Notes: generated by a model from the sequence alone, not told the origin. Shown: positions 11,022 through 53,839, counted from the first letter of the stretch. The stretch is 64,000 nucleotides of DNA from an uncultured Flavobacteriales bacterium (GCA_963716125.1 OY970294.1:3585396-3649395); one strand, 5' to 3'. Program-made: numbers and translations.

Positions 11022-12982
11022 TCGATTGAAATCACTTTAAATTCCGTTCTTCTGTTTTTCGCCTTTCCTTTAACAGTATTATTTGATGCTATCGGCTGAC
11101 TTTGGCCATATCCTTTAAAAGTTAATCTAGAACTAGATATGCCGTTCTTTATTAAATAGTTATAAACTTCTTTTGCTCTATTGGTAGATAAAGTATTATT
11201 TAGAGCAACGCTACCTTCATTATCCGTATGTCCTGCAATTTCGATAGAAAGGTTTTCATTTTTCTTTAAAAAGGTTACCAATTTATTCAACTCAGCCTTA
11301 GAATTACCTAACAATTCATACTCATTAGTGGCATAGAAAATATTTTTAAGGATTACTTTTTCTCCCACCTTAATCTTATCTAATTCAATATTCATTTTAT
11401 AAGGCTCATCTTCAGAAGCGTTCTCAATAGTAAAATTCTCAGAATAAAATAAGTACCCATCTCTAGAAACGTTCAAAGCATAATCTCTTGACAATGGTAA
11501 AGCAATTAAAAAACTACCATCATTAGGATCTGAATAAGATGCAATTACAGTTTCTTCTGTTTCCATATTAATCAATTCAAATTTTCCTAATAAAGGCTTC
11601 TTTGTTTCTGAATCAATTACTTTTCCTGCCAAATAACTCACTTGTTTTGGTTGTATAGATGGATCCAAAGCAAACTCATATAAATCCAAACCTCCATATC
11701 CGCCTTCACGATCAGATGCAAAATAAGCTTTTTGACCATCGGGAGAGATCAAAATTGAGTTCTCATTACCAAAAGTATTAATTGGATAACCTAAATTTTG
11801 AGGATTGCTCCAATTGCCGTCCTTATCTTTTCTACATAAATAAATGTCCAAATCACCCATTCCTGGATGTCCATCTGATGAAAAATATAAGGTTTGTCCA
11901 TCAGGATGAATAAAAACAGATTCTTCATTTTTAACAGTGTTTATATTCATTGGCAGTGGTTGAGGCATTGACCAATACCCCTCAGCATTTAATTCAGTAA
12001 CAAATATATCACTATGTGATTTTCCATTTTTTGGTTTAACTCTTCTGATAAAATAAAGAGTTTTCCCATCAGCGCTAAAAGAAGGTTGAGTTTCCCAAGA
12101 ACTAGAATTTACAGGCTTGCCGATATTTTCAGCTTTCAACCATCTTTGTCCAACTCTTTGTGAATAAAATAAATCACAGCTTCCATATCCTTTTCTTTCC
12201 GCACCATATTCTCCATAAAATTCACAAGCGGTAAATATTAATAATTTACCATCAGCCGATAAAGTAGGAGCTCCTTCATTATTCTCGGTATTAATTGGCT
12301 GTCCTAAATTTTGAGATTTTTCCCATTTACCATCGATTAATTTACTTACATAAAAATCTTCATTAAATTTAATGGGTGAGTCAGGAGCAGGAAGTTGACG
12401 AGTATATAATAAGGTAGAACCATCAACTGTAATACTCGGAAAATATTCAGAATAAGATGAATTTACACCTTCGCCCATATTTATTGCTTTAAAAGGTACG
12501 GGGTTTTTCATTGCCTCTAAAGCATATTCTATATTTACTAATCGATCTTGTGCATCGCTTCTCAACCGTGGATCGGCCTTTGGCAATAAAAGATATCTTT
12601 CAAAACCTTTCTTTGCATATTGATAATCACCTAATTCCATTGATAGTTGCGCAGCGAAAAATAAATTTAAGGTAGAAAATGAAGGATTAATATTAAGCGC
12701 TTTTTTGAAACTGCTTAAGGCTTTTTCTTTTTCTCTGCTATCTACATAAACATACCCCAACAAAGTGTGTGCTTCCACGAAATTAGATTCTTTTTCTAAA
12801 GCTTCTAATAATAAAGGAATAGCTAAATTAGGTTGACGATTTTTATAATTTTCGTTGGCCTCTTCAAATAATTTAATAGCTTTTTTATTGTTTATTGTAT
12901 AGTTAGTGCTTTGAGCAGAAATTTGCAAAAACGAAAACAATAAAAGTGAGAGAATTAAACTTGATTTTTTGAAAATTTCCAT
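11018..12982 (-). CDS. OmpA-family outer-membrane protein with TPR repeats and a TolB-like beta-propeller
   Basis: C-terminal OmpA/MotB peptidoglycan-binding domain (NIFYATNEYELLGNSKAELNKLVTFLKKN...GHTDNEGS...NRRTEFKVI), N-terminal TPR repeats and signal peptide. The start is taken at MEIFKK (12982); the ORF-track start is 13009. Confidence 0.8.
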   Translation of the reverse strand: MEIFKKSSLILSLLLFSFLQISAQSTNYTINNKKAIKLFEEANENYKNRQPNLAIPLLLEALEKESNFVEAHTLLGYVYVDSREKEKALSSFKKALNINPSFSTLNLFFAAQLSMELGDYQYAKKGFERYLLLPKADPRLRSDAQDRLVNIEYALEAMKNPVPFKAINMGEGVNSSYSEYFPSITVDGSTLLYTRQLPAPDSPIKFNEDFYVSKLIDGKWEKSQNLGQPINTENNEGAPTLSADGKLLIFTACEFYGEYGAERKGYGSCDLFYSQRVGQRWLKAENIGKPVNSSSWETQPSFSADGKTLYFIRRVKPKNGKSHSDIFVTELNAEGYWSMPQPLPMNINTVKNEESVFIHPDGQTLYFSSDGHPGMGDLDIYLCRKDKDGNWSNPQNLGYPINTFGNENSILISPDGQKAYFASDREGGYGGLDLYEFALDPSIQPKQVSYLAGKVIDSETKKPLLGKFELINMETEETVIASYSDPNDGSFLIALPLSRDYALNVSRDGYLFYSENFTIENASEDEPYKMNIELDKIKVGEKVILKNIFYATNEYELLGNSKAELNKLVTFLKKNENLSIEIAGHTDNEGSVALNNTLSTNRAKEVYNYLIKNGISSSRLTFKGYGQSQPIASNNTVKGKAKNRRTEFKVISID

Positions 12983-13681: not shown

Positions 13682-13756
13682 TCGGGACGAGTGGATTCGA
13701 ACCACCGATCTCGCGCCCCCCAGACGCGCACTTTAACCGGACTAAGCTACGTCCCG
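13682..13756 (-). tRNA. tRNA-Pro (anticodon GGG), 75 nt, CCA not encoded
   Basis: Manual cloverleaf: acceptor CGGGACG/CGTCCCG with the bacterial tRNA-Pro hallmark C1:G72 and discriminator A73. D-stem GCTT/AAGT, anticodon stem CGCGT/GCGCG with loop CUGGGGG, T-stem GGTGG/CCACT with T-loop TTCGAAT. Confidence 0.9.
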
Positions 13757-47058: not shown

Positions 47059-48318
47059 ATGGAAAACAAAAAAGCATTATTCCAACTCTTGACCGCTAAT
47101 GCAATCTCACAGTTTGCCCAAGGGATTAGTATGTTAGCTATTCCATGGTATTTTGCTAAACAACTAGGAGAAGCTTCCTTTTTTGCAACATTTTACGCTG
47201 TTGCTACATTTACAACTCTTTTTTGGGGATTATATGCAGGCACTTTAATAGATAAATTTCCAAGAAAAAATATTTTTATGGCGTTGTGTCTATTTAGTTT
47301 TTTAGTTCTGGGAATATCCTCTGCTATTGGTTTTTATCAGGGTGAAACTCCTATGGTGGTAGCGGCTTTAGTATTTTGTTTTACTATTTTCAACTATAAT
47401 ATCCATTATCCTACTCTCTATGCCTTCGGACAAGAGATTACAGAAAAAGAGAATTATGCTAAAACCAATTCTCTTTTAGAAATTATGGGACAATCCACCA
47501 ATGTGCTTTCTGGAGCCATGGCAATAGTGCTAATTGAAGGATTTTCACAAACAATTTTTGGTTGGAACATATACATCGAAGCTTGGAGTATTCAAGAAAT
47601 ATTTCTGTTGGATGCTAGCACTTATATAGTTGCTTTTATATTCATCAAATCAATTAAATACACCCCAAAGGTTAAGGAAATAAAAGCTAGTAAAGAAAGT
47701 GCATGGTTGAGGTTGAAAGAGGGGTTCCATTTTTTGAAAAAAAATCCATTATTGTTTTATTTTGGAAATGCATCATACACGGTTTTCATATTCGTTTTAG
47801 TTTCTACACATTTGTTGTGGCCTATGTATATAGACCAACATTTAAATGTAAGTGGAGGAATTTATGCTGCTACGAAGGTTATTTATGCTTTAGGAGCAGT
47901 ACTTTCAGGATTTTTCATAACCAAATTGCTATTGAAAACAAATACCATTAAAAGTATAATTATATTGATGGTAACCGCTGCAATTGCATTTTTCATCCTT
48001 ACCATTACTCAAAATTTTTACTATTTACTTTTCCTCAGCATATTCTTTGGAATCAGTAATGCCGGCGTTCGAATAATGAGAGTAACTTACCTATTTAACC
48101 ACATTCCCAACCATATAATTGGACGAACCAATAGTGTTTTTCAGAGTATCAATATTTTTTTAAGATCTGTTTTTATTGGTTTGTTCTCTTTCGCTTTTTT
48201 TGCTGAAGGTTCACAAATTGTTTGGGCATTTGTTATTGCAGTTGTCGCAATCCTTCTATCAATAATACCGTTACTTCTCCATTACAAATCCTTAAATAAA
48301 TTAAAAACAAATATTTAA
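47059..48318 (+). CDS. MFS transporter
   Basis: About 12 predicted TM helices with MFS-like loop motifs. The start is taken at MENKKALFQ. Confidence 0.75.
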   Translation: MENKKALFQLLTANAISQFAQGISMLAIPWYFAKQLGEASFFATFYAVATFTTLFWGLYAGTLIDKFPRKNIFMALCLFSFLVLGISSAIGFYQGETPMVVAALVFCFTIFNYNIHYPTLYAFGQEITEKENYAKTNSLLEIMGQSTNVLSGAMAIVLIEGFSQTIFGWNIYIEAWSIQEIFLLDASTYIVAFIFIKSIKYTPKVKEIKASKESAWLRLKEGFHFLKKNPLLFYFGNASYTVFIFVLVSTHLLWPMYIDQHLNVSGGIYAATKVIYALGAVLSGFFITKLLLKTNTIKSIIILMVTAAIAFFILTITQNFYYLLFLSIFFGISNAGVRIMRVTYLFNHIPNHIIGRTNSVFQSINIFLRSVFIGLFSFAFFAEGSQIVWAFVIAVVAILLSIIPLLLHYKSLNKLKTNI

Positions 48319-48352
48319 AGAAGAAATAGTATTTTTAAGCCAATGAAAAAGA

Positions 48353-48733
48353 AGGAGCAAGAGATATTACTCAAAAAGGCTAAAAGTTTTTTAGAGAAAA
48401 AATAGTAGAATCTCATATTAATTCCGCTTGTAAAAGAGCTGGAAAACTTTCTAATTACAACGTAAATCCTTTTTTATATAAGTATTTAGCAAACTTTCTC
48501 AAAGGAAACGATAATCCAAGAAGTATAGCTGAAGCACTAGTTTTACCAAGTGTTTTAGGTTCTTCAATAAACACTTCTTTTGGAATGAGAATACAAGAAC
48601 GAATTATTTGATGGTTTTGGACCAACTACACCAGGTATCGATATTGAATTTATTGATGCAGTTGAAGGTAGAAAAAAATATTGTCAGTTAAAATCAGGTC
48701 CAAATACTATAAATCACTTTTCATAATGCTTGT
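48353..48733 (+). pseudogene. small conserved-looking gene (~126 aa) broken by two single-base indels in homopolymer runs (A6 at 48407-48412; TTT at 48617-48619)
   Basis: Three consecutive frames read MKKKEQEILLKKAKSFLEKK | IVESHINSACKRAGKLSNYNVNPFLYKYLANFLKGNDNPRSIAEALVLPSVLGSSINTSFGMRIQERII | DGFGPTTPGIDIEFIDAVEGRKKYCQLKSGPNTINHFS. Each frame switch coincides with a homopolymer. Confidence 0.4.
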
Positions 48734-48810
48734 TTACAATTTATAGACACCTTAAAGTTAACAAATACTGCTTAATTAAAAAATTGCCGAAATTTATTAG
48801 GTTTATTCTT

Positions 48811-49170
48811 CAAACTTCGTAACCAATAGATAACAAGCCGATTTGAACTAACAAAAACTTGCAGGTTTTGTCTCCGATTAATCAACTTAGTTAATGCAAT
48901 ATTTTTCAGCCCGTCCGCCAAAGTGCAACGAAGGAGGATTGTCAATTGCTCTTAACTACCGCCTAAACCTGCAAGGTTTAACTTGCAAACATCTCAACTG
49001 ATTGATAACAAGAAGTAACTAAATAACAAAACCTTGCAAGTTTTTGCTTTGATAAAACATTTTAGTAAATATATTAATTTCAATTATCCAACTTTCCTGC
49101 AAATTCTAATTGTACATTTTCAAGCCGTCCGCCGAAGTGCAACGAAGGAGGATTGTCAATTGCTCTTAAC
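48811..49170. repeat. tandem repeat array 1 (~1.7 units, period ~214 bp) of a novel intergenic repeat family
   Basis: Partial unit, then a full unit, then 12 bp. It shares the box CCGCC(A)AAGTGCAACGAAGGAGGATTGTCAATTGCTCTTAAC and the paired near-palindromes AAACCTGCAAGGTTT / AAACCTTGCA(A/G)GTTT with array 2. Confidence 0.8.
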
Positions 49171-50733
49171 AATTTTCTCCGTACTAATTAAATTCCCTCT
49201 TGTATCTGTTATTCTTAAAAAATAAACTCCTGATTTAAGGCTAGACACATCAATTTGAGTATCTGAATAATTAGAATTTTGCTCTTGCACCAATCTACCC
49301 ATTTGATCTAATAAGGTAAAATGCAATTGCACTGGTCTGTAATACTGACGAACTGTAAAATAATCTTTTGTAGGATTAGGAAAAACCTTTATTTCTTCTG
49401 CTTTTTTAATAGGTTCATTGATACCAACAGGAGTTGATTTTCGAGGCCAATAAGCTATACTATCTATATAAGTTACTTTTGCAAAACTGTGTAGATTATT
49501 GTTGTTATCATATTCTGTGCACTGCCCAGTAACCCATAAGCCGCCCTTATCATCTTTTTCCATTCGCCTTACATAACAATAATCATCAAAAGGTAAATAA
49601 TACGACCAATGCAAATCTCCTTTTTCATTTAAACCATAAATAACTGCGTCAGTATTCCATGGCATAGGGTCAACTAAATAGAATCTTTCAGTTAAAGCGG
49701 TCACATATAAATTGCTATCATATTTTAAAATTTGTTGAGTACCACCGGAACCATACTCTGCTGTATCATTTTTTCCATATATTTTTGATACTCCTCCTTG
49801 CTCATTATAAGGGGCATCAATTTCCCGAATTCCAATAGCCAAGTCCCAATCACGTGCAGGATTTGGGTTCGTTTTGGGGTTAAAAATATAATATGGATTA
49901 AAAACTCCACTCATTACCATAAAGGTAGAATCTGAAATAGGAGCCAAAGCTCCCATAAATGTCCCTACTGATGAACCTAAAGTTATATGGAAAGTCCCAT
50001 TAATCTCCATTAATCTATTAGAACCAGGAATTATATTTAAATTCGAATCTATAGTTGTTATACCATTTCCATACAAATTAGATTGACTAACTGAATCTCT
50101 AAATACGTCACTACTTAATCCAGTAAAAGTATTAGCTCTTTTATTCCAAATTAAATCAAGAAGAAGACACGGTGAACCCAAACATTCAGATTCTAATCGA
50201 TTAACGATATTTAAATTAGAATCTAATTCTAGCAATACCATTGTAGATTTATTAGCAATATCAATTTTGGAGAGAGAAAGAAAGTAGTTCTCATTAATTT
50301 TTTTCACAAATAAGATTCCAATTTGTGAATAAGGAGTATCTATATAAACTTTATTAGAAAAATCATCGAGATTCCCCATATTATAATACAACCTATACTC
50401 TTGTTTGGAGGTGTCTGCTACGGTTCCAAATTTTAAAAAAGTATTCTGGTAAGGTATAATAAAATTCGTAAAATTGACTAAATTGGTATCAATAATAGTA
50501 GAATCTATCAAAGTTACATTTTTATTTGCAAACCTTTGAATTTCATACTGATTATAAAAAACATTTGATGTAAGATTTGATGTCTTCCCGTAAACAAACA
50601 ATGTATCTTTATTTAAGTAAGTATTTAAAATGGAATAATTTAATTTGTTAATTGAATTAATGGTTGTCCAAGATTGGGCAAATACTTGTAATGTAAAACC
50701 AAAACCTAATAAAACAGTAATTAGATATTTCAT
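49156..50733 (-). CDS. T9SS C-terminal-domain secreted protein of unknown function
   Basis: 525 aa with a signal peptide. The C-terminus (VFPNPTKDYFTVRQ…GVYFLRITDTRGNLISTEKIVK) is a T9SS CTD. Its last codons and stop lie inside repeat array 1. Confidence 0.7.
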   Translation of the reverse strand: MKYLITVLLGFGFTLQVFAQSWTTINSINKLNYSILNTYLNKDTLFVYGKTSNLTSNVFYNQYEIQRFANKNVTLIDSTIIDTNLVNFTNFIIPYQNTFLKFGTVADTSKQEYRLYYNMGNLDDFSNKVYIDTPYSQIGILFVKKINENYFLSLSKIDIANKSTMVLLELDSNLNIVNRLESECLGSPCLLLDLIWNKRANTFTGLSSDVFRDSVSQSNLYGNGITTIDSNLNIIPGSNRLMEINGTFHITLGSSVGTFMGALAPISDSTFMVMSGVFNPYYIFNPKTNPNPARDWDLAIGIREIDAPYNEQGGVSKIYGKNDTAEYGSGGTQQILKYDSNLYVTALTERFYLVDPMPWNTDAVIYGLNEKGDLHWSYYLPFDDYCYVRRMEKDDKGGLWVTGQCTEYDNNNNLHSFAKVTYIDSIAYWPRKSTPVGINEPIKKAEEIKVFPNPTKDYFTVRQYYRPVQLHFTLLDQMGRLVQEQNSNYSDTQIDVSSLKSGVYFLRITDTRGNLISTEKIVKSN

Positions 50734-50798
50734 ATCATAAATTTATAGATAAAAACACCCAATTAATTATTCGTAATTAATTGGGTGTTTAAAATTAA

Positions 50799-51818
50799 TT
50801 AATAATATTGTATAAGTTGAGCATATTGAATTACTAACACATGTTCGCCTTTATTACTACTTGTAATAGGGTCAGTATAATTTTCACCATACAAATAATA
50901 ATTAATTTGTCCTATTAATGGATTCGATGGAACAACATAGGTAGTCCAAGTGGGAGTTAAATCATTTGCTACAGCTTTTGCACCGGGCTCATAGATATTG
51001 TTCAAGTCAGATTTTGAAAGGCAATCGGCACCGCTATTTCCATTCCATATTCTACTATCATTTCTACCTTTTTCATATCTTGTTTTTATATCATACCACA
51101 CTATATCACATACACAAGTAAAACCAGGTGAGCCTAACTGACTATTGCAGTCACTATTCATCAACATTGATTCCATTCTTAGAGCTGCATCGCCAGCATA
51201 CATAGCTGAACAATCTCCTCTTTTTTGATATGCTTTCCAATCATTATCAAAGCTACAAAATGGAACAAGAGGCTCATAATCATATTTCATATCTACCAAA
51301 ACTGAAATTTTATCTGTAGGGCTAGATCCATAATTATCTAAACCTTCAAAATCAATAACAGATATAAAACTTGAACTTCCATGAGTAGCATAAAAAGTAG
51401 AATTCGTAAATGCATCTTCTACTTCATCTTTTATGGTATTAAAATAGTCTAAACTTTGTCCATCTAAGCTAAAAACACCTTCAGATTCCGTGTAATCTAA
51501 ATCTACTTCAATTTCTAATCTTTCACTGTAATAAGATTTTTTATCAAAGTTTCCAATGTCAGTATTTACAGCTGTTTCTAACAATTTTAGAGTAGTTTCC
51601 AAGTCAAATGTAGCACTCGGTTCATCTCCGTTTAATAAATCCTTTGTATGAGTTATAATATCTGATTCAGTTATTCCTCCAGCCTTATCATTATTCCCTG
51701 CTATACTTTTTGAAGCAGTTGCATTTCCGTTAGGCGAAATTCCTGCATCTTTTTCACATGCAGTAAATATTGCCATTGTGGCTATTAAAAAGCCCACGAT
51801 AATTTTATTCTTTTTCAT
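50799..51818 (-). CDS. hypothetical lipoprotein with a Cys-rich C-terminal half
   Basis: Lipoprotein signal (LIATMAIFTACEKD). Many Cys in the C-terminal half (CSFDND…GDCSAMYAGD…DCNSQLG…FTCVCDIVWYD…GADCLS). Confidence 0.55.
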   Translation of the reverse strand: MKKNKIIVGFLIATMAIFTACEKDAGISPNGNATASKSIAGNNDKAGGITESDIITHTKDLLNGDEPSATFDLETTLKLLETAVNTDIGNFDKKSYYSERLEIEVDLDYTESEGVFSLDGQSLDYFNTIKDEVEDAFTNSTFYATHGSSSFISVIDFEGLDNYGSSPTDKISVLVDMKYDYEPLVPFCSFDNDWKAYQKRGDCSAMYAGDAALRMESMLMNSDCNSQLGSPGFTCVCDIVWYDIKTRYEKGRNDSRIWNGNSGADCLSKSDLNNIYEPGAKAVANDLTPTWTTYVVPSNPLIGQINYYLYGENYTDPITSSNKGEHVLVIQYAQLIQYY

Positions 51819-51981
51819 CGTTTTATATTATTAAGGGCAGATTGCCCAAGTTAATTAAAATTTCTTATTTAGCGCTAAACGAGAAAATATTTTATGGAAC
51901 AATGTTAAGAAAGCTAAAGGGATACGAAAAGGTATTAAATACAAAGCTTATGCATATTTTACAAAACATTTGTACAAAATA

Positions 51982-52012
51982 CAATTGAATGGTACTTAAT
52001 ACCATTTAATTG
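51982..52012. promoter_or_regulatory. 31-bp palindrome CAATTGAATGGTA-cttaa-TACCATTTAATTG, with a second dyad AAATACAA-atcaa-TTGTATTT 15 bp downstream; candidate operators in the divergent promoter region
   Basis: 13-bp inverted-repeat arms with one mismatch. It is flanked by repeated ACAAAATACAA motifs, ~160 bp upstream of the XRE-family regulator gene. Confidence 0.4.
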
Positions 52013-52173
52013 CACAAAATACAAATCAATTGTATTTATTCTTTTTTAAAATGCGCCTCTAAAAGTCAGAGTATACAAGTAAATGATAAATTTTATTTAA
52101 AAAAATAGCCCCCCCTATAACAACCTAATATAAAATACGTTATATTTATTGTAATAAATTAAAATTCTAAGCT

Positions 52174-52470
52174 ATGCTTCAAATTTCCCAAAATATCAAA
52201 TTCTTTAGATTGTTACGCAATTTAAAACAATCGTACATCTTTGAAAAACTTCAATTAAATCCTAGAACATATAGTAAGATTGAATTGGGAACAAAATCTC
52301 CAACTGTAGATGAAATGGCCATATTGGCAGAAATTTTTAATATCACTGCTCTCCATCTAAAATATTTCGACCCAAATTTGACCATAAAACTAAGTGAGCA
52401 AGCTGTTAACTTAAAAAGAAACCATAATTATGAAGATGAGCAAATATTGGAAATGTTGAATCCGGAATAA
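52174..52470 (+). CDS. XRE-family helix-turn-helix transcriptional regulator
   Basis: 98 aa. HTH_XRE pattern (LRNLKQSYIFEKLQLNPRTYSKIELGTKSPTVDEMAILAEIFNI). Confidence 0.7.
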   Translation: MLQISQNIKFFRLLRNLKQSYIFEKLQLNPRTYSKIELGTKSPTVDEMAILAEIFNITALHLKYFDPNLTIKLSEQAVNLKRNHNYEDEQILEMLNPE

Positions 52471-52472
52471 AT

Positions 52473-52860
52473 AATTGCTCTTAACTACCGCCGAAACCTG
52501 CAAGGTTTTACCTACAAACTTCAGAACTGATAGATAACAAGCCGACATGAACTAACAAAACCTTGCAGGTTTTTGCTTCGATAAAACACTGTAATTTCAA
52601 TTATCCAACCGTCCTGCAAATTCTAATTGTACATTTTCAATACGCCCGCCGAAGTGCAACGAAGGAGGATTTTCAATTGCTCTTAACTACCTCCGAAACC
52701 TGCAAGGTTTTACCTACAAACTTCAGAACCGATAGATAACAAGCCGATATGAACTAACAAAACCTTGCAGGTTTTTGCTTTGATAAAACATTTTAGTAAA
52801 AACTGTAATTTCAATTATCCAACCGTCCTGCGAATTTGACGAAGGCAAATTCTATGTCAT
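52473..52860. repeat. tandem repeat array 2 (~1.9 units, period ~202 bp) of the same novel repeat family as array 1
   Basis: It starts 3 bp after the XRE gene stop. Units 52475..52676 and 52677..~52860 are >90% identical to each other and ~80% identical to array 1. Confidence 0.8.
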
Positions 52861-52891
52861 TCATTAATAATTAACAATTTACAATTTACAA

Positions 52892-53839
52892 TTAAAAATT
52901 ATAAAAGTTTTCAATTTTCTCCGCCAAAAAGCTAGATAATTTTTCATAAGACTCTATTGTCCATCCAGCTACATGAGGAGATAAAATTACATTTTCAAAA
53001 ACAATTAAATCTTGAAAAACTACTGGTAAATCTTCCTTGCTGAGGTTCTCAAAGGAAAGACTTTCAAATTCTAATACATCCAAACAAGCGCCTAAAACTT
53101 TTTTAGATTTTAATCCATTTACCAATGCTGAGGTGTCTAAACATTTGCCTCTTGCGGTATTGATTATATAAAATGGCTTCTTGCAACCATCTATAAATGA
53201 ATTGTTAAAATAATAATGTGTTTCATCAGTATAAGGTAGATGTAGACTCACTACATCTGATTTTTCTTGAAGTTCTGTTAATGAAACTTCTTTAACAAAT
53301 TCATTTCCAAAGCCATTTTTGTATTTGTCGTGGGCTAATATTTCTACTCCAAAACCTTTCAATCGTTCAGCAAAAGCTTGTCCCATAAATCCATATCCGA
53401 TTATACCAACAGTTTTACCTTTAAGCTCTATACCTCTGTTTTGTTCCCGTTGCCACAATCCATTTCTTACTTCTTGATTGCCTCTTGCAATATGATTGAA
53501 TAAACTTAGCAACATGCCTAATGCATGTTCAGCCACAGCATCTCTGTTTCCTTCCGGAGAATTAAAACATTGAATATTTAGCTTTTTTGCAGTTTCTAAA
53601 TCAATATTTTCCATGCCTGCCCCTGAGCGAGCAATCCATTTTAAGTTGGATGCTTTTTGAAGCAATTCTGCATCAAATTTGAATTTGCTTCTGATAACCG
53701 CACCTTCATATTGATCAATAATGGTTTCAATTTCCACAGGTGTTAAATCTACTTTCCAATCACATTGAAGACCTATTTTTTCTAGTCGTTCTTTTAAAAT
53801 AGGATGAACAGAATCAATGAAAATAACTTTCTCTTTCAT
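52892..53839 (-). CDS. D-isomer-specific 2-hydroxyacid dehydrogenase family protein (NAD-binding)
   Basis: Rossmann motif GIIGYGFMGQAF and the catalytic-domain pattern of the PGDH/GDH family. Confidence 0.8.
   Translation of the reverse strand: MKEKVIFIDSVHPILKERLEKIGLQCDWKVDLTPVEIETIIDQYEGAVIRSKFKFDAELLQKASNLKWIARSGAGMENIDLETAKKLNIQCFNSPEGNRDAVAEHALGMLLSLFNHIARGNQEVRNGLWQREQNRGIELKGKTVGIIGYGFMGQAFAERLKGFGVEILAHDKYKNGFGNEFVKEVSLTELQEKSDVVSLHLPYTDETHYYFNNSFIDGCKKPFYIINTARGKCLDTSALVNGLKSKKVLGACLDVLEFESLSFENLSKEDLPVVFQDLIVFENVILSPHVAGWTIESYEKLSSFLAEKIENFYNF

Follow-up and report, generated by a model that had tools for sequence, protein, structure and literature searches.

What are the ~200-bp repeats that stand on either side of three genes in the chromosome of an uncultured Flavobacteriales bacterium, and how did they come to be there? 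The question is raised by positions 48,811 to 52,860 of a 64,000-nucleotide stretch of this genome (GCA_963716125.1 OY970294.1:3585396-3649395, hereafter the window), in which an earlier reading made from the sequence alone (the sequence-only reading) had described two arrays of a ~200-215-bp tandem repeat bracketing a gene for a type IX secretion system (T9SS) cargo protein, a lipoprotein gene and a divergently transcribed XRE-family regulator gene. We find that the repeats are real but ordinary: a non-coding duplication of low copy number, specific to this lineage, at a locus where every relative examined shows rearrangement. To the explanation that we favor, that the repeats are the scars of segmental duplication or ectopic recombination of the tail of the T9SS gene together with ~190 nt of its flank, at a rearrangement hotspot, we give about an even chance.

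Organization of the Repeats

Repeat finding, alignment and profile searching revealed a ~200-bp non-coding sequence present as four units, all in plus orientation and two at each site (Table 1). With boundaries set by an nhmmer profile of the four units, array 1 spans 48782-49170 and consists of u1 (175 nt) followed by u2 (214 nt), and array 2 spans 52473-52851 and consists of 13 nt followed by u3 (202 nt) and u4 (164 nt). Clear homology of u4 ends at ~52851, its end permits two alternative alignments, and a degenerate continuation to 52874 is possible. Tandem Repeats Finder (TRF) did not report the arrays. The two same-orientation blocks of the sequence-only reading are therefore real and their units do run head to tail, but the boundaries are corrected to those given above, and each "array" holds only about two copies of 164-214 nt. 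Its exclusion of CRISPR stands, since units of 202-214 bp abut head to tail with no spacers between them, and open reading frame (ORF) calls with Pfam/NCBIfam searches find exactly the three enclosed genes that it named. Array 2, which it placed 3 bp past the stop codon of the regulator, starts 2 nt after that codon.

The junctions are marked by a 13-mer, AATTGCTCTTAAC (r), which has four exact matches (48944, 49158, 52473 and 52675) versus 0.26 expected, located at the end of u1, the end of u2, the very start of array 2 and the u3/u4 boundary. Both arrays read r-u-r-u-(r), with the units in register and head to tail; array 1 closes with r and array 2 opens with it. The sole robust feature inside the unit is a perfect inverted repeat of 16-17 bp, AAACCTGCAAGGTTTT ... 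AAAACCTTGCAGGTTT, with a 47-nt spacer (arms at 52494-52509 and 52557-52572 in u3). Unit u1 lacks 40 nt and one of these arms, as expected for decaying neutral DNA. The G+C content of the units is 35-38%, versus a window mean of 32% and 13-25% in the neighboring spacers, and stop codons are present in all six frames.

The >90% identity that had been claimed for adjacent copies holds for u3/u4 only (91.5% without gap columns, 89.5% with the 12-nt indel), whereas u1 and u2 are 82% identical in addition to the 40-nt deletion difference. Compared with the other units, u1 is 78-84% identical, and over its final 54 nt, around r, it matches the end of u2 at 94%. Across the two arrays, for which ~80% had been given, identity is 78-88% unit by unit and 75.5% when the 347 nt of colinear alignment are taken together, with u2 and u3, the pair on either side of the enclosed segment, at 88%. 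The longest perfect runs common to both arrays are ~26-29 nt, and each of the conserved 25-26-nt cores is present three times, versus zero times in 100 shuffles. No fifth copy of the unit was found within the 64-kb window by the nhmmer profile or by seed counts.

The Repeat Unit Includes the End of the T9SS Gene

The minus-strand reading of r, GTT AAG AGC AAT T(GA), encodes the last four residues and the stop of the T9SS protein (VKSN*), so that array 1 does supply the last codons and the stop (TGA) of this gene, as the sequence-only reading had it. On the gene strand, every unit opens with these same four codons and stop. Since u2 is continuous with the T9SS ORF and r constitutes its last codons, u2 is the gene's own 3' flank. 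A search with the T9SS protein found six relatives. The C-terminal ends are TEKVVKF, TEKVIKL and TEKVLKL in other organisms, and TEKIVKSN in both the window protein and a paralogue from the same genome (P0122), indicating that the V-K encoded by r is the native C-terminus of the family and not a fusion artefact. Because r is native, the unit arose from the gene tail and its flank, and the gene did not gain a foreign stop. The copies are colinear and direct, and one of them is continuous with the source gene, which is the pattern of a segmental duplication.

P0122 is encoded on the same 3.75-Mb contig, outside the window, and is 66% identical overall to the window protein. The identity is unevenly distributed, with the first ~360 aa roughly 55% identical and the last ~155 aa nearly identical; the latter exceed the sorting domain alone and correspond to the 3' ~460 nt of the gene (49156-49620). 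We read this mosaic as a recent conversion or recombination signature, and the protein comparison points to such an exchange between T9SS copies that took in the 3' third of the gene. Recombination between the T9SS copies is independently supported by a Logan short-read contig of the same strain (ERR12040027), which breaks at 49588, the point from which the two paralogues are alike. Two other contig ends fall within units, at 48856 (in u1, L037) and 52510 (in u3, L035), and the terminal 30-mers of both are unique within the window. Further copies of the unit elsewhere in the genome, most plausibly behind P0122, would explain these two ends; the hint is a weak one, and it is weakened by a third contig end at 52884, in a stretch of 13% G+C, for which no repeat accounts. 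The Logan contigs of this strain, the only other sample, are 100% identical to the window, with no deletion or amplification allele seen. Another organism (L031) has five paralogues of the T9SS family in tandem, at a locus unrelated to this one; the spacers between them are short, and the unit is absent.

Array 2 Is a Secondary Insertion at a Rearranged Locus

The loci of relatives were found through orthologues of the D-2-hydroxyacid dehydrogenase whose gene follows array 2. In the closest of them (L008, dehydrogenase 85% identical), the order is dehydrogenase, a 23-nt spacer, a convergent XRE gene, an operator-like intergenic region, a lipoprotein gene, a gene for a CarboxypepD_reg-domain protein and an aspartokinase gene. 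The same convergent dehydrogenase and XRE genes enclose array 2 in the window, where the gap between them is 421 nt versus the 23 nt of L008. Between the two genomes, XRE protein identity is 76%, the intergenic region from XRE to lipoprotein aligns at 84%, and the operator-like repeats are present in L008 in four copies with 20-nt spacing (11433-11531). The repeat unit is absent from the L008 locus, also by the nhmmer profile. An orthologous, contiguous block in a relative without the repeat indicates that array 2 is a secondary insertion of ~380-400 nt, and that dehydrogenase, XRE, operator and lipoprotein 5' end have been inherited together, so that the three enclosed genes are not a mobile cassette.

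The two lipoproteins (339 aa in the window; 218 aa in L008, 11640-12296) are 73% identical over their first 59 aa, which include the signal peptide and the lipobox, and unrelated thereafter. A conserved 5' module with a swapped body suggests a cassette-like replacement of the exposed part of the protein. Left of lipoprotein codon ~59 there is no synteny with L008, be it for the lipoprotein body, the T9SS gene, array 1, the restriction-endonuclease pseudogene beside it or the MFS transporter gene. The comparison of orthologous loci that had been proposed for the 3.3-kb segment thus divides it: the T9SS gene and the lipoprotein body differ in L008, but L008 shares XRE, operator and lipoprotein 5' end with the window.

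Three further relatives (L010, L011 and L038) lack the XRE module, and each has different neighbors past the dehydrogenase gene. On its other side, the order is conserved in L008, L010 and L011 (MgtE, KsgA, DUF4286, a TPR protein, SerRS, L27, L21 etc.), and L038 keeps only the adjoining MgtE gene. Since the genes that follow the dehydrogenase differ in the window, L008, L010, L011 and L038, we regard this position as a recurrent breakpoint or rearrangement hotspot, and we count the truncated restriction pseudogene beside array 1 as support for it. When the unit profile was run with nhmmer against 38 loci, including the orthologous loci of five relatives and L031, the only matches were chance matches selected by the seed.

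A Possible Origin by Segmental Duplication

Duplication of the T9SS gene tail and its flank could have proceeded in two steps. In the first, the tail and flank would have been tandemly duplicated behind the gene, giving T9SS-(r)u2-(r)u1-(r'), most simply via misalignment at r-like sequences. In the second, a two-unit copy, r-u3-r-u4-..., would have been placed in the short spacer between the dehydrogenase and XRE genes. The most economical route to this second copy would be a tandem duplication of the block [XRE-lipoprotein-T9SS-array] followed by illegitimate deletion of the first XRE-lipoprotein-T9SS copy, which would account, in two illegitimate events, for the order, orientation and architecture seen here; the pattern r-u-r-u-r at both sites is what whole-block duplication and partial deletion would leave. 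Alternatively, the second copy may have arisen ectopically during recombination with the paralogous T9SS locus. The order and mechanism of these events are those that we infer from the present arrangement.

The outcome is a 3.3-kb accessory segment lying between direct repeats of ~380 bp. For direct-repeat-flanked segments in bacterial chromosomes, the expected products are loss of the segment, with one hybrid copy remaining, or its tandem amplification, and recombination between the arrays could likewise delete the segment here, leaving one hybrid array, or amplify it. The proposal of the sequence-only reading that the arrays are substrates for RecA is compatible with their direct orientation, their length and their perfect runs of 26-29 nt, which are enough for occasional RecA-mediated deletion or amplification, but no variant allele was seen. 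Recombination between the arrays may thus occur from time to time.

Several points weigh against a duplication of this kind. A block duplication predicts u4-u2 and u3-u1 as the most similar pairs, whereas the closest pairs are u3/u4 and u2/u3; given this mismatch in the unit phylogeny, either a later homogenization or a near-simultaneous origin of all four units must be assumed. The raised G+C content of the units is not obviously predicted for a decaying 3' flank, and the strong conservation of the 54 nt around r, even in the diverged u1, could mean constraint. No repeat within the window explains the contig ends at 48856 and 52510, a hint of copies elsewhere. Lastly, a unit following P0122, which the duplication of the gene tail predicts, stays a prediction.

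Alternative Explanations

A different origin, which we consider unlikely, is that the unit belongs to a dispersed family of non-autonomous intergenic repeats of the miniature inverted-repeat transposable element (MITE), REP/BIME, Correia or "transposed satellite" kind, moved in trans, with the window capturing two insertion sites. Elements of this kind settle in 3'-3' spacers between genes, in some cases head to tail. The two arrays do occupy spacers between convergent gene ends and have one orientation with respect to the minus-strand gene upstream of each, and array 2 is a clean ~0.4-kb insertion in what is a 23-nt spacer in L008. The perfect inverted repeat within the unit, its G+C content above background and the two contig ends that lack an in-window cause would also suit such a family, and transposed satellites with long units have been reported, as rare cases, in prokaryotes (PMC6749651). 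On the other hand, neither the units nor the arrays are bounded by terminal inverted repeats; their ends consist instead of direct copies of r, and r is the native coding end of the T9SS gene, which is not expected on a mobile element. Evidence for a target-site duplication is not convincing; the hexamer ATAATT is found close to each end of array 2, as expected by chance in DNA of 13-30% G+C. No transposase gene was found in the neighborhood.

Scans of sequence collections gave chance hits or nothing. An 18-mer core searched against 185,579 species-representative genomes, the window's own not included, had six single, seed-limited hits in unrelated phyla; a degenerate 21-nt core that fits all four units had 19 hits in JGI metagenomes, likewise seed-limited; and viral contigs, plasmids and phages yielded no match to the unit. 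These scans, which need exact seeds or >65% identity, show that the unit is not widespread and are silent on its copy number in its own genome.

A more far-reaching proposal, which we hold to be distinctly improbable, is that several copies of the unit in this genome always trail members of the T9SS-cargo paralogue family and serve as portable homology boxes by which cargo genes are moved or swapped between loci, deleted or amplified. If this were true, the near-identical 3' third of the two paralogues, together with array 2 as an "empty" landing site beside the dehydrogenase gene, would be traces of a homology-driven cassette system for secreted surface proteins. We found no description in the literature of such repeats behind T9SS genes.

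The enclosed segment might instead be a three-gene cassette that integrated, through site-specific recombination or transposition at r, into a pre-existing array u1-u2/u3-u4 and duplicated r, the units being attachment or recombination sites. The sequence-only reading had likewise mentioned attachment or transposition scars, of an unrecognized element. An identical 13-mer at both inner junctions (49158-49170 and 52473-52485) is what such an event would leave, u2 and u3 are more alike than the colinear pairs, and r (TCTTAAC / GTTAAGA) is only one base, the last, off the integron core GTTRRRY. However, the 13-bp "duplication" at the junctions is accounted for by r being native T9SS coding sequence, r has no inverted partner in the unit and hence no attC-like R''/R' pair exists, and the units abut with no gene between them. 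Pfam/NCBIfam searches found no recombinase, integrase or transposase in the 3.3-kb segment, which is filled by its three genes, and no recombinase beside it, where the family-searched neighbors are an MFS transporter, RecX, a 196-aa ORF without a match and the dehydrogenase only. Taken with the array-less L008, in which XRE, operator and lipoprotein 5' end adjoin the dehydrogenase gene, these results make scars of a three-gene element very unlikely.

Least probable of all, by a narrow margin, is that the unit is a cis-acting or small RNA transcribed along with the upstream gene or after it (a 3'-untranslated-region stabilizer, a terminator or a small RNA derived from such a region), repeated in tandem behind the T9SS and dehydrogenase genes. 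In its favor are the position of both arrays directly after the stop codon of a minus-strand gene, the raised G+C content in an AT-rich genome, the 16-17-bp helix with its long-range pairing and the T-run that comes after it on the plus strand, and three C-to-T changes in the left arm of u1 that would keep G-U pairs in plus-strand RNA. The sole Rfam 15 match in the 64 kb is a tRNA-Pro (13682-13756), outside the arrays, and at E<=10 the region 48300-53000 gave only chance miRNA and snoRNA matches, far below gathering scores. Predicted folding was no better than for shuffled sequences on both strands (z = -1.19, -0.24, -0.79 and -0.74). Zero pairs of the 16-bp helix are changed on both sides, in a comparison of four sequences that has very low power, and four pairs are broken in individual units, several of them in u1 and u2. 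Neither array holds, on either strand, the TAnnTTTG box (the Bacteroidetes -7 box), a sigma-70-type promoter scan being uninformative for this phylum, and there is no terminator-like site in the arrays. The 40 nt missing from u1 also speak against a functional RNA, and with no homologue of the unit in any relative no argument from conservation can be made. The tandem small-RNA gene of the sequence-only reading accordingly finds no support, and the units appear to be neutral DNA with no detectable function of their own.

Four other candidates were dropped. An attachment site derived from a tRNA or tmRNA gene was rejected as ARAGORN found none. An IS200/IS605-like single-strand element inserting after TTAAC was attractive for explaining the head-to-tail junctions, yet the two ends do not both have subterminal hairpins, and a Y1 transposase is nowhere in view. 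Descent of the unit from some coding gene besides the T9SS tail was discarded because the six frames of the arrays, joined into one pseudo-protein that could also have met spurious ORFs called in other copies, had no match among 5.8 billion predicted proteins; as the window's own array ORFs are absent from that database, this negative says nothing about copies elsewhere. Finally, XRE operator sites inside the units were dismissed, a TTGTACA heptamer being all that the two have in common.

The Enclosed Genes and Their Surroundings

The features of the locus are collected in Table 1. The region 48300-53000 contains a single terminator-like site, a hairpin in the spacer that separates the lipoprotein gene from the T9SS gene, and the two genes may thus be separate transcription units. 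Between the divergent XRE and lipoprotein genes, a motif of roughly TKGYAC-N4-TACMA recurs in ~4 copies with a 20-bp period; these repeats are probably binding sites through which the XRE protein controls the lipoprotein gene. In the same spacer, of 24% G+C, a C7 homopolymer (52109-52115) lies ~58 nt 5' of the XRE start codon, and the corresponding tract of L008 has eight residues (~11347-11354). This tract is a candidate site for slipped-strand phase variation of the XRE and lipoprotein promoters.

Left of array 1, joined reading-frame pieces identified an EcoO109I-type restriction-endonuclease pseudogene with at least two frame disruptions, which is 3'-truncated just before the array. No methyltransferase gene adjoins it. 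On the right, a run of 7-nt tandem repeats (ATTAACA / AATTTAC) with 13% G+C at 52863-52917 overlaps the stop-codon region of the dehydrogenase gene. The genes past the dehydrogenase match housekeeping genes in relatives, and names for the ORFs further to the left come from their translations alone.

Table 1. Repeat units, genes and other sequence features at the two arrays, in window coordinates
Feature	Coordinates	Strand	Remarks
EcoO109I-family type II restriction-endonuclease pseudogene	48334-48722	+	PF14511 RE_EcoO109I, E 1.5e-12, profile positions 7-117/198
Putative degenerate r copy (r')	48768-48781	+	Outer end of array 1; MAFFT aligns sequence beginning ACTGCTTAATTAAA with AATTGCTCTTAAC; weak match
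u1	48782-48956	+	Most diverged unit; 40-nt internal deletion; r at its end, 48944-48956; nhmmer E 1.6e-48
u2	48957-49170	+	214 nt; r at 49158-49170; T9SS ORF ends inside; nhmmer E 2.3e-63
T9SS cargo gene, C-terminal sorting domain	49156-50733	-	525 aa; PF18962 and TIGR04183 at aa 450-523
Hairpin, terminator-like	50753-50790	-	17 perfect pairs, then T-rich tail; lipoprotein/T9SS spacer
Lipoprotein gene	50799-51818	-	339 aa; lipobox ...IFTAC; no Pfam or NCBIfam match
Operator-like repeats	51960-52037		XRE/lipoprotein intergenic; TRF period 20, 3.8 copies; repeat families D5 and I2
XRE-family helix-turn-helix regulator gene	52174-52470	+	98 aa; PF01381 (HTH_3), E 8.6e-10
r, inner end of array 2	52473-52485	+	13-mer identical to the terminal one of array 1
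u3	52486-52687	+	202 nt; lacks 12-nt stretch found in u2 and u4; nhmmer E 8.8e-63
u4	52688-52851	+	~30-nt internal gap versus profile; nhmmer E 1.5e-48, model positions 2-190
D-2-hydroxyacid dehydrogenase gene	52892-53839	-	PF02826 and PF00389; last gene of conserved syntenic block

Implications and Relation to Known Systems

As things stand, the repeats matter little. As far as annotation is concerned, repeated sequence makes up ~0.8 kb of "intergenic" DNA and also the last codons of the T9SS gene, and assemblies from short reads are interrupted at this locus. For the stability of the strain, a 3.3-kb accessory segment encoding a regulator, a surface lipoprotein and a secreted protein would be poised for loss or amplification. 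Should the unit recur behind T9SS cargo genes, it would document the shuffling of paralogous secreted-protein genes in Flavobacteriia-like bacteria.

Among known systems, integron attC arrays resemble the locus in having a repeated site after the 3' end of a gene and a junction at a GTT... motif, and ORF-less units could be thought of as "empty cassettes". They differ in that an integrase and an attC-type imperfect palindrome with R''/R' core sites are missing here, that GTTAAGA departs from GTTRRRY, and that the enclosed genes are syntenic in a relative without the repeat.

With the intergenic repeats of the REP/BIME, Correia, MITE and STAR (PMC3532100) families, the unit shares its location in convergent 3' spacers, its internal inverted repeat and its absence from the orthologous spacer of a relative. 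Unlike them, it lacks terminal inverted repeats and a clear target duplication, it is far longer than REP, its edge holds coding sequence of the neighboring gene, and evidence for a high copy number is wanting, with none other in the 64 kb. Prokaryotic satellites, among which rare "transposed satellite families" have been described (Subirana & Messeguer 2019, PMC6749651), are likewise head-to-tail, non-coding and made of long units found at more than one genome site. The present repeats are distinguished by having about two copies per site and a unit that starts with the last codons of the adjacent gene.

The segmental duplications of the RecA type, in which direct repeats flank a segment, are alike in having colinear direct copies of a few hundred bp around a segment of a few kb, with junctions at short shared sequences. 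The present locus differs from them in that the flanking copies are themselves two-unit tandem repeats, in that no variant allele has been observed, and in an identity of 75-88% with perfect runs of at most 29 nt, at which recombination should be inefficient.

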